From a virus (taxonomy: Duplodnaviria; Heunggongvirae; Uroviricota; Caudoviricetes), in IMG/VR virus record IMGVR_UViG_2778261425_000003: a stretch of 47,028 nucleotides of DNA; one strand, given 5' to 3'. The translations under genes were made by a program, and so were the position numbers. The notes beneath the pieces were generated by a model. That model was given only the letters and a program-made list of their open reading frames with translations. It was not told where the DNA came from and made no database searches. Of this stretch, positions 36,950 through 38,232 are shown piece by piece (position 1 is the stretch's first letter; each line of letters starts with the position of its first letter).

Positions 36950-37105
36950 ATGAACACGTTCAGCATAATCGCGATACCTTTTTTTGCCCTTTCAGTGGTT
37001 CTGTTGACTCTTGGCGCTACCAGGAAGAACCAAGCCAGCTTCATCGTTGGCGGCGTGTTTATGGCGTCATGCGTGGTTAATGCCATTATCGGCATGTCTC
37101 TTTGA
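36950..37105 (+). CDS. small two-TM membrane protein; first gene of the rex-position module
   Basis: 51 aa MNTFSIIAIPFFALSVVLLTLGATRKNQASFIVGGVFMASCVVNAIIGMSL; GAGG RBS 6 nt upstream; below the ORF-track cutoff, found by hand. Confidence 0.5.
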   Translation: MNTFSIIAIPFFALSVVLLTLGATRKNQASFIVGGVFMASCVVNAIIGMSL

Positions 37106-37297
37106 GCGCTATGAGATCAGGCATCCTCGTTACTTTGTCATGTGTGACAGCCTGGTATGCACTCTGCGAGCTTTGATGTGGTTTACCACTTTAATAGTCA
37201 CCGTATCACTAAACTGATTAGCTTTACTCATACTCTTGTGGATTCGCTATTTCTGATGTCAATGCAAAAAAATACTAAGGAAACAAAAAGGATACTT

Positions 37298-37564
37298 ATG
37301 TCAGATAACACTATTAAAATCATACCTCAGCACATGACCGCCACATCAGTTCTTATTACGCCTGATCGTGCTGAAACAATCATTACTTTTTACCGCCATG
37401 AATTTGAGCATCACATGCAGTCTGATGAGCAAGGAAAGAATAGCTTCCAAGTAAAAGTTGAGTTGACCCCTAACATGTCAGTCTCAATGAGCCCGGATCA
37501 AGCTGTTGCATTAGTAAAATCATTACAGGTAGCTCTCAGGGATAATGGGCTATGGAAAGACTGA
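37298..37564 (+). CDS. hypothetical 88-aa protein; second gene of the rex-position module
   Basis: ATG 37298 with AAGGA RBS; MSDNTIKIIPQHMTATSVLITPDRAETIITFYRHEFEHHMQSDEQ... Confidence 0.55.
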   Translation: MSDNTIKIIPQHMTATSVLITPDRAETIITFYRHEFEHHMQSDEQGKNSFQVKVELTPNMSVSMSPDQAVALVKSLQVALRDNGLWKD

Positions 37565-38202
37565 AGCCAGTTTCTTCAGTTCAACCTACCTCAGGAACAA
37601 CATCATCAGTTCTTCCAAGTATTATAGTTAGTGCAACCCTAGCAGCGACAACCGTTTCTCCTTATGGGGATCCATCTCAGTACCAAAGTATTGGTATTGA
37701 TGCTAAGGTATCAAATAGAGTTTCATACGCCATGGACGAAACGGGTTTGCGCCCAAGTAAGGAAGATGTAGCGATGAAGAGTGATACCCTGGAGGTAAGC
37801 GTGAGCGGAATGTCCAGAGAAGAACTTGACGCAAAGCTTTCACAAAACAAATCAGAGGTAGAGTCTATTGCTGCGGAAATGCGTCGCGAATCAGCTGACT
37901 TTAAAACCTATTATACTCAGCAATTTTCTTCTATTGAGAGAGGTATTGCTGAAATTAAAGGTGAAATCGGCGGTTTGAAAACGGGACTTACAACGACTCA
38001 GTGGGCGATGGCCGTTGGCTTGACTTTAGTTACTGTGATTCTGTCTGGCGTGATGTTAGCCTCAAGTTGGATTATCTCCGGCAATGACAAGTCACCATCA
38101 GTAACCAGCCCGGCTCCAATTATAATACAGGTACCGACACAGCAACCATTAACGAGCGCTCCAACTAACCAATCGTCATCACAACAAGCTCCTAAGCAAT
38201 AA
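37552..38202 (+). CDS. hypothetical membrane-anchored protein; third gene of the rex-position module
   Basis: 216 aa; Ser/Thr-rich N-terminus, predicted coiled coil (ELDAKLSQNKSEVESIAAEMRRES...), TM helix WAMAVGLTLVTVILSGVMLASSWIISG, Pro/Gln/Ser-rich tail; overlaps upstream gene by 13 nt. Confidence 0.6.
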   Translation: MERLKPVSSVQPTSGTTSSVLPSIIVSATLAATTVSPYGDPSQYQSIGIDAKVSNRVSYAMDETGLRPSKEDVAMKSDTLEVSVSGMSREELDAKLSQNKSEVESIAAEMRRESADFKTYYTQQFSSIERGIAEIKGEIGGLKTGLTTTQWAMAVGLTLVTVILSGVMLASSWIISGNDKSPSVTSPAPIIIQVPTQQPLTSAPTNQSSSQQAPKQ

Positions 38203-38207
38203 ATAAA

Positions 38208-38232
38208 CCCGGCCACCGCGCCGGGTTTTCTT
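38208..38232 (+). terminator. rho-independent terminator ending the cI-side operon (timm-like)
   Basis: CCCGGC/GCCGGG stem with 6-nt loop followed by TTTTCTTT, directly after the stop at 38202. Confidence 0.75.

Follow-up and report, generated by a model that had tools for sequence, protein, structure and literature searches.

HK97 genes 49 and 48 in place of rexAB in a lambda-immunity prophage: a repressor-linked two-gene module and candidate phage exclusion system

The interval between cI and N is a mosaic hotspot for accessory loci (PMC8585504, PMC7067206; both cite Degnan et al. 2007). The rexAB, bstA and higBAC loci have all been placed in this hotspot, where bstA is read from the promoter of cI (PMC8585504, PMC7067206, 10.1101/2024.02.24.581848), and lambda RexAB is expressed in the lysogen (PMC7067206). 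HK97 gp15 and P22 SieA are prophage-expressed inner-membrane proteins that block genome entry (PMC3594210). Here we describe the content of the cI-N interval in a 47,028-nt stretch of DNA from a virus of the Caudoviricetes (IMG/VR record IMGVR_UViG_2778261425_000003), the whole of which we call the window. The slot that holds rexAB in lambda is occupied in the window by genes 49 and 48 of phage HK97, which encode a small soluble protein (gp49) and a predicted tail-anchored coiled-coil protein of the inner membrane (gp48). What is new is that these genes form a two-gene module with a defined architecture, a large family and a near-obligatory association with repressor genes. We weigh an anti-phage role for the module against several alternatives.

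HK97 genes 49 and 48 in the rexAB slot

The window carries a lambda-type immunity region, read in the leftward direction of lambda. Positions 35844-36868, spanning cro, OR and cI, are 97.7% identical to lambda 38255-37231, and positions 38206-38486, from the terminator after rexB through OL/pL, are 89.7% identical to lambda 35826-35550. The DNA between these blocks (36869-38205) is unrelated to lambda and stands in place of rexA and rexB. Because lambda homology ends at the cI stop codon and returns at the terminator after rexB, the rexAB slot is the part that has been replaced.

The replacement consists of genes 49 and 48 of HK97. The cassette has 99.7% nucleotide identity to HK97 over its whole length, and its two larger open reading frames (ORFs) are annotated there as Gp49 and Gp48 (NP_037734 and NP_037733). 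Identity to HK225, whose repressor differs, is 99.9%, and the cassette is also found in Lambdavirus PDP110P1. An HK97-type cassette is carried by 52 of 5426 complete E. coli genomes, and the plasmid collection we searched held no copy. The gene 49 homologue (37298-37564, + strand; 88 aa; 99.7% nucleotide identity to HK97) matches phrog_26809 with an E value of 2.7e-62, and the gene 48 homologue (37552-38202, + strand; 216 aa; 100% amino acid identity to HK97 Gp48) matches phrog_5820 at 9.6e-69. Both of these PHROGs are labelled as having unknown function.

An earlier note on this DNA, made from its letters and a list of ORFs, had described three uncharacterised genes on the + strand, co-oriented with cI: the two above and a 51-codon ORF upstream of them, which we call orf51. 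All three ORFs are present. No functional report on genes 49 and 48 was found in the searchable literature, as the word uncharacterised implies, but they are not unknown genes; they were sequenced long ago, have been public since the HK97 genome, and do not represent new sequence. With the genes known from HK97 and the cI-N hotspot published, the novelty of the locus had been overstated.

No hydrophobic segment was found in gp49 when one was sought, which agrees with the soluble protein described in the earlier note. A homologue in Klebsiella has 66% identity and the same gene arrangement. The AlphaFold2 model of gp49, built from a four-sequence alignment, has six strands and a C-terminal helix, with a predicted local distance difference test score (pLDDT) of 50. 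A Foldseek search of the PDB with this model returned nothing at E<=0.001; the best matches (E 0.35; template modelling score ~0.2) were OB-fold single-stranded DNA-binding proteins and are meaningless at such model confidence. Only a profile-profile comparison ties gp49 and its Klebsiella homologue to the partner family of other modules, described below (hhalign E 1.6e-4, probability 50%). In that alignment the ITF..H strand and the C-terminal S..QA..L.KSL helix are paired, and it is probable from this likeness that gp49 belongs to a common partner family.

Gp48 is predicted to be a coiled-coil protein anchored in the membrane by its C-terminal end. Its AlphaFold2 model (10-sequence alignment; pLDDT 50) has a long helix at residues 89-139 and a transmembrane (TM) helix at about 147-177, with the rest disordered, and hydropathy analysis places one clear C-terminal TM helix at residues 152-170. 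The coiled coil and C-terminal TM helix proposed in the earlier note are thus also predicted by the model. A candidate second TM helix at residues 19-35 (hydropathy 1.68, seen only at a relaxed threshold) was rejected as weak and absent from the family at large.

Direct searches recovered only a handful of gp48 homologues. In a profile search of 1.84 billion representative proteins, 210 were recovered at E<=0.001, 109 of them at E<=1e-10, and all 95 of the relatives that we aligned match PHROG 5820. The family has a variable N-terminus, with 4-119 aa ahead of a conserved [ST]REELDAKLxxNKAEV motif that opens the long helix. A single TM helix close to the C-terminus was found in 92/95 relatives, followed by a Pro/Gln/Ser-rich tail (median 37 aa) that in 28/95 contains a P-[IV]-[IV]-[IV]-Q-[VI]-P motif. 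Gp48 itself has both motifs, as SREELDAKLxxNKAEV and PIIIQVP. Lysine and arginine are more frequent on the N-terminal flank of the family's TM helix than on the other (1.96 vs 1.12), and by the positive-inside rule this predicts a cytoplasmic N-terminus and a periplasmic tail. A scan of genome contigs with peptide patterns for the family gave three loci; the 95-sequence alignment was too diverse for deriving such patterns.

Profile searches against PDB sequences returned coiled coils only. Weak matches to CCDC90-like/DUF1640 occur in 29/95 relatives (best E 2e-8), and precomputed annotation assigns PF07798 to a few relatives; the gp48 of the window scores 12.6 bits against this family (PF07798), under the cut-off of 33.5. 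These matches, along with those to Baculo_PEP_C and similar families, come from the coiled coil.

A conserved pair downstream of repressor genes

The conserved unit is the pair of genes and not the trio of the earlier note. In the window orf51 lies 192 nt from gene 49 and is not coupled to it, and diverged copies of the module do not have it. The coupling that had been proposed for all three genes stands for gp49 and gp48, whose reading frames have 13 nt in common, from the start of gp48 at 37552 to the end of gp49 at 37564. Across 21 genomic contexts examined, the gp48-family gene has a tightly linked small ORF ahead of it; this ORF encodes 84-146 aa, and in 15/16 measured modules its spacing from the membrane protein gene lies between a 47-nt overlap and a 36-nt gap. 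By BLAST, ten of the partner proteins form a single family. Gp48 and the corresponding Klebsiella protein have both a common N-terminal region and a common gp49-type partner, and three family members with the other partner type have a short PAY[HY][ED] motif in common. In this small sample, the pattern would fit a partner that docks on gp48 at its variable N-terminal tail.

A second partner type, of 144-146 aa and without a Pfam match, is found in HK542 (locus L045, 1986-3037) and in Sodalis (locus L013, 3459-4372). The gp48-family members that accompany it have extra glycine-containing heptad repeats in the coiled coil. A different elaboration occurs in Yersinia intermedia (locus L004, 3746-4691), where a gp49/gp48-like pair is separated from the repressor gene by two extra paralogous ORFs (132 and 135 aa). 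Both encode an N-terminal TM helix, and neither has a Pfam match.

In 18/21 contexts the pair lies directly downstream of a prophage repressor gene, encoding a protein with a helix-turn-helix (HTH) or S24 domain, and is co-oriented with it, while a cro-like gene lies divergently at the opposite flank. The repressors include lambda cI (the window and HK97), the HK225 repressor, a 139-aa HTH repressor (locus L024) and hybrid cI proteins with only the C-terminal half in common (loci L025, L028 and L031). Further examples are found in Yersinia intermedia, Y. aleksiciae, Klebsiella michiganensis (in a Rac-like immunity region), Kosakonia, Sodalis and HK244/HK542, and in eight metagenomic loci, among them four distant members of the gp48 family that had been selected solely by the length of their contigs. 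The three exceptions all occupy accessory positions in prophages: two are in Xenorhabdus, beside arc/ant and an antirepressor-like gene, respectively, and one lies past a tail-fibre assembly gene at the prophage end. The association of the gp48 family with repressor genes is nearly obligatory.

In the first Xenorhabdus locus (L008, 5516-7648) the module adjoins arc/ant together with a RelB/ParE pair, and in the second (L012) it adjoins the antirepressor-like gene. The neighbourhood of these modules, with its immI-type genes, is where P22 carries sieA.

The earlier note had asked whether the genes recur downstream of repressors in other prophages. They do so not only as diverged modules: an identical HK97-type cassette (bounds 36848/36897 and 38236) sits behind at least four different immunity regions, and the cassette therefore moves as a unit. 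Between the same flanks, phages hold rexAB, hicAB-type genes (mEp234, HK106, mEp506), HK24405/HK24404, or gp49/48. The cassette thus has the look of accessory (moron) cargo, variable DNA that lies between conserved cI and the Timm terminator/OL and is exchanged among immunity types.

Synteny this strict, which takes in distant family members, goes beyond what would be expected of a generic moron, and it raises the alternative that the pair modulates the lysis-lysogeny switch or prophage induction, either tuning the repressor or coupling the state of the envelope to induction. The Xenorhabdus modules, with their arc/ant-type or antirepressor-like neighbours, would fit such a role. It would also resemble the second function of lambda RexA, which biases the switch to the lytic state independently of RexB (10.1101/2021.04.19.439022; PMC11077077). 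Set against this analogy, the same cassette sits behind unrelated repressors, S24-type cI as well as short HTH-only proteins, which argues against a specific protein-protein contact; Pfam and NCBIfam detected no DNA-binding or protease-related domain in the pair; and some members lie far from any repressor, past tail-fibre genes. We consider a switch modulator quite unlikely.

The status of orf51 (36950-37105, + strand; 51 codons) bears on a second alternative, that it is an integral third component of a three-gene operon. This putative gene for a small protein with two TM segments occurs in the HK97-type cassette only, and there always, whatever the immunity region. It has a good Shine-Dalgarno sequence (GAGG, 5 nt ahead of the ATG) and hydrophobic segments at residues 6-22 and 31-47, and several pipelines call it as a gene, giving a 25-member cluster from E. 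coli, Citrobacter, Enterobacter and Shigella. In the 15 members of this cluster that were examined, variants are conservative apart from a single I9K and a single K26M. Over 25 cassette copies, orf51 has 5 synonymous and 4 conservative non-synonymous substitutions, an excess of synonymous change (5/9) with P = 0.04 vs neutrality. The last of these signals is ambiguous: a 69-codon antisense ORF over orf51 (36886-37095, - strand) gives the same counts because its third codon positions are in common with those of orf51, so in the substitution test orf51 is favoured only by how conservative its sense-frame replacements are.

Other observations separate orf51 from the pair. It is absent from all diverged modules, and in four of them (Kosakonia, L021, Klebsiella, L019) the gap between repressor and partner genes is only 76-162 nt; tblastn against phages found no diverged homologue, and it is annotated neither in HK97 nor by PGAP/RefSeq. 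Over the same 25 copies, orf51 (153 nt) has 9/25 variable alignment columns (10 substitutions) and gp48 (648 nt) has none, a difference that suggests separate histories, with either recombination within the cassette or constraints that differ between orf51 and gp48. Together with its distance from gene 49, these findings make an integral role in a three-gene operon improbable. It is plausible that orf51 is a genuine gene for a small membrane protein, carried along with the HK97-type cassette, but it is not a defining component of the two-gene module.

An unrelated 51-aa ORF with one TM helix lies between repressor and pair at locus L018 (3438-3593), in the same relative place as orf51. On the opposite strand of the cassette, the 69-codon ORF has the position of a reverse-strand 'hypothetical protein' annotated in HK225, and an 88-codon ORF (37998-38264, - strand) covers the 3' end of gp48 and the terminator. 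Both antisense ORFs are probably spurious.

Expression in the lysogen and proposed function

The regulatory setting of the pair is that of rexAB. The cI gene (36159-36872, + strand) encodes a 237-aa repressor with Pfam HTH_3 and Peptidase_S24 domains, identical to lambda CI at 235/237 residues, and cro (35858-36058, - strand) encodes a 66-aa protein identical to lambda Cro at 65/66. OR1-OR2-OR3, with divergent pR and pRM, occupies 36085-36148 inside the 97.7% identical block; a pR-like promoter is present on the - strand (36111-36083), and OR2 (36109-36125) and OR3 (36132-36148) have no mismatch to what we take to be the lambda operator sequences. On the far side of the cassette, OL3-OL2-OL1 and pL occupy 38385-38447 (+ strand). 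Here OL1, OL2 and OL3 likewise show no mismatch to the presumed lambda operators, and the pL promoter reads TTGACA-17-GATACT at 38419-38447. The first gene of the pL operon is N (38696-39079, + strand), encoding a 127-aa antiterminator (Pfam N_peptide, E 1.7e-15; phrog_271). The earlier description of cI, cro, OR and OL as essentially lambda, and of the rexAB slot as holding unrelated genes, is borne out by these identities and by the two homologous blocks.

The left boundary of the mobile cassette is a junction or leader after cI (36873-36949, + strand), lambda homology having ended at 36868. Its first 51 nt after the cI stop codon (36873-36923) are 100% common to mEp506 and E. coli PE15, and in mEp506 the cargo behind this identical junction is of hicAB type. 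This stretch is a conserved junction/leader at the left edge of the variable slot, and is possibly a recombination linker or an RNA element; an Rfam scan of 35500-39200 gave no match. At the right edge, the cI operon ends in Timm, an intrinsic terminator (38205-38232, + strand) inside the block homologous to lambda 35826-35550. Its hairpin has a 9-bp stem with 6 GC pairs, then UUUUCUUU, with a folding energy of -18.9 kcal/mol (z = -4.25), and so matches the strong terminator before OL/pL that had been proposed. The label Timm is given to the homologous site in HK244, and the matching stretch is an annotated terminator in mEp234 and 933W.

On the + strand between 36800 and 37320, relaxed criteria recovered no sigma-70-like site other than two weak ones (9/12 and 8/12) at 36939-36969, over the start of orf51. 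The AT-rich spacer between orf51 and gp49 (37106-37297, + strand; GC 0.396) has no promoter-like site by the same relaxed criteria, and the only terminator-like hairpin in 36800-37320 is a weak 5-bp stem within orf51. As for rexAB, readthrough from pRM/pRE to Timm would be the simplest reading. With no strong internal promoter, no convincing terminator between cI and gp49, and an operon closed at Timm, we infer that the module would be transcribed with the repressor and made in the lysogen; gp49/gp48 is probably a lysogen-expressed accessory module. A lower GC content than that of cI (0.455) had also been claimed for the three genes. The claim is only marginally true, with 0.444 for gp48 and 0.412 for gp49, and orf51 is higher than cI (0.481).

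The common orientation with cI also bears on whether gp48 and gp49 could be lytic-cycle proteins, holin-, antiholin- or spanin-like or a replication membrane anchor, that merely lie beside cI. Genes oriented with cI and upstream of Timm would shut off, not on, after induction. A coiled coil with a single TM helix has a superficial likeness to i-spanins and XhlA-type lysis proteins, and some relatives weakly match coiled-coil families of phage tail and scaffold proteins. The predicted topology, however, is the reverse of that of an i-spanin, with the TM helix C-terminal and the coiled coil cytoplasmic, and the tail and scaffold matches are generic coiled-coil similarity. No holin, spanin or XhlA family (Pfam, PHROG) matched the pair or the gp48 relatives, and no homology of the pair to structural proteins was found by Pfam, PHROG or profile searches. 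The earlier note had named homology to structural or lysis proteins as the finding that would speak against its proposal; none was detected. We regard a lytic-cycle function as highly improbable.

Our favoured reading is that the pair is a lysogen-expressed phage exclusion system, a functional analogue of RexAB without homology to it. Here the conserved parts of gp48 (its coiled coil, TM helix and tail) would make up a membrane effector, which may oligomerise through the coiled coil and form or gate a membrane lesion or channel, or else obstruct DNA entry at the inner membrane. Gp49 would bind the variable N-terminal segment of gp48 as a sensor or regulator. The case for defence is drawn only from position and architecture, and on these grounds we judge the prospects of an anti-phage role to be evenly balanced. 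Because the models are of low confidence and the fold search was empty, the mechanism is argued from topology alone, and a gp49 sensor or regulator acting with a gp48 membrane effector is a tentative proposal, rather doubtful in its particulars.

Several results weigh against exclusion. Scans of the three window proteins with Pfam, NCBIfam and PADLOC (PADLOC-DB v2) gave nothing above threshold, and hence no match to a defence family. In the 95 gp48 relatives PADLOC gave scattered weak coiled-coil matches only (CorA, LmuB, JetC, ZorA), each in no more than 6/95. BLASTP aligned gp48 with RexB over 13 residues at E 0.68 and gave no alignment of gp49 with RexA. The AlphaFold models of both proteins are of low confidence (pLDDT ~50) and the fold search is empty. 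The searchable full-text literature contained no functional study of HK97 gp48/gp49, the primary HK97 and hotspot papers being outside that scope. Known injection blockers are usually single small membrane proteins, and the module here has two components. Finally, the cI-N slot is not specific to defence; other accessory genes and modulators of the genetic switch are found there too. Searches outside this tally were likewise negative: among six partner proteins PADLOC gave no match at E<=0.1 for five and only a weak Cas8b match for the Xenorhabdus one (E 0.0085, 0.017), the window proteins matched no RexA or RexB Pfam family at E<=1, and neither the fold search nor PDB profile searches found a similar solved structure for the pair. 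The pair is invisible to current defence-finding tools (PADLOC).

The occupants of the slot in sister phages suggest a further alternative, in which gp48 and gp49 are a membrane toxin and its protein antidote, with an addiction-like function, or in which the pair brings about a lysogenic conversion that has nothing to do with phage, for example tolerance of envelope stress or altered membrane physiology. Toxin-antitoxin (TA) systems are held there by mEp234, HK106 and mEp506 (hicAB-type) and as higBAC, and the tight pairing and overlapping reading frames of gp49/gp48 recall such systems. Gp48 also resembles tail-anchored coiled-coil membrane proteins, as in the weak CCDC90-like/DUF1640 matches. 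Yet neither protein is like a known toxin or antitoxin family in Pfam, PADLOC or NCBIfam, and although the small protein is encoded upstream, no DNA-binding domain for autoregulation was detected in it. TA systems in the slot, moreover, act as abortive-infection defences, so that this alternative overlaps with phage exclusion. On balance we find it unlikely.

Carried to the whole family, the exclusion reading would make gp48 and its relatives a new and widespread class of prophage exclusion, in which a viroporin-like, tail-anchored coiled-coil effector in the inner membrane is held or triggered by a small sensor acting through a fast-evolving cytoplasmic N-terminal tail, both co-transcribed with the repressor. 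The family would then be among the commonest cargoes downstream of repressor genes, in Enterobacterales and beyond, a mechanistic parallel to RexAB that is evolutionarily independent of it. We think this wider reading less likely than not.

If the pair is a defence system, it is a two-component membrane system of novel sequence, found in roughly 1% of complete E. coli genomes as well as in many other genera, and missed by PADLOC. It would be a much smaller and simpler model than RexAB for a cytoplasmic sensor that triggers a membrane effector. The strict link to repressors also makes the pair a test case for what draws such cargo to the slot. Should the pair not serve in defence, that synteny would point to an accessory of the lysogeny switch that has gone unrecognised. 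With a cassette of 1.3 kb, and HK97 being a standard laboratory phage, the pair is a good experimental candidate.

The prophage that carries the module is a mosaic. Positions 3597-24000 are 97.5% identical to the morphogenesis region of SfI/SfII, Shigella serotype-converting myoviruses, and the early region (28500-43600) is of the HK97/HK106 lambdoid type. The prophage is thus not HK97 itself but combines SfI-type structural genes with an HK97/HK106-type early region. A gtr glycosyltransferase is listed under the SfI/SfII match of the morphogenesis genes. The first gene past N in the pL operon (39141-39761, + strand) encodes a full-length Nmad5 (nucleotide-modification-associated domain 5, PF18757, E 3.7e-72) and has no counterpart at that position in HK97. 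Farther along, a 175-aa ORF (40441-40968, + strand) matches HNH_3 (E 1.8e-15), with a sub-threshold match to AP2 (29.2 bits, cut-off 33.3), and is a homing-endonuclease-like gene within the early-left operon.

Comparison with known systems

Among described families, CCDC90-like/DUF1640 (PF07798) likewise has a coiled coil followed by a C-terminal TM helix; it has no known function in bacteria, so the likeness says little about gp48. HK97 gp15 and P22 SieA each consist of one small protein that has neither a coiled coil nor a soluble partner, and no homology between them and the pair was detected. BstA (of BTP1), HigBAC and HicAB-type TA or toxin-antitoxin-chaperone (TAC) systems have the same genomic position as the module, but their proteins and mechanisms are unrelated to it. 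BstA and HigBAC have been studied by experiment as abortive-infection or TA systems, whereas the pair here is known from sequence.

The closest relatives are the cassettes of HK97, HK225 and PDP110P1, which are 99.7-99.9% identical to the window over 36873-38260; in HK97 the cassette has the same position, from a lambda-type cI to OL/pL. The window differs from HK97 in its SfI/SfII-type morphogenesis genes and in the genes past N. A more distant relative is HK24404 of HK244/HK542, a 206-aa member of the gp48 family with 28% identity, a SREELDARL...NKAE motif and a C-terminal TM helix. Its gene has an overlapping partner gene ahead of it and Timm behind, in the rex slot of wild lambda-immunity phages. 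The HK24405/HK24404 pair differs from gp49/gp48 in that the partner is 144 aa long and has no BLAST relation to gp49, the coiled coil has extra G-containing heptads, and the tail is without PIIIQVP.

A further comparison is with RexAB of lambda, a system characterised by exclusion of T4 rII and other phages together with membrane depolarisation. RexA binds DNA as a dimer, and RexB is polytopic in the membrane. The lambda proteins are 279 aa (RexA) and 144 aa (RexB), so that a polytopic membrane protein is joined there by a partner of ~280 aa; this is not so for gp48 and gp49, the soluble member being 88 aa long and the membrane member combining a long coiled coil with one TM helix at its C-terminal end. 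Common to both are the slot between cI and Timm, the orientation with cI, and a composition of two genes, one for a soluble protein and one for a membrane protein.

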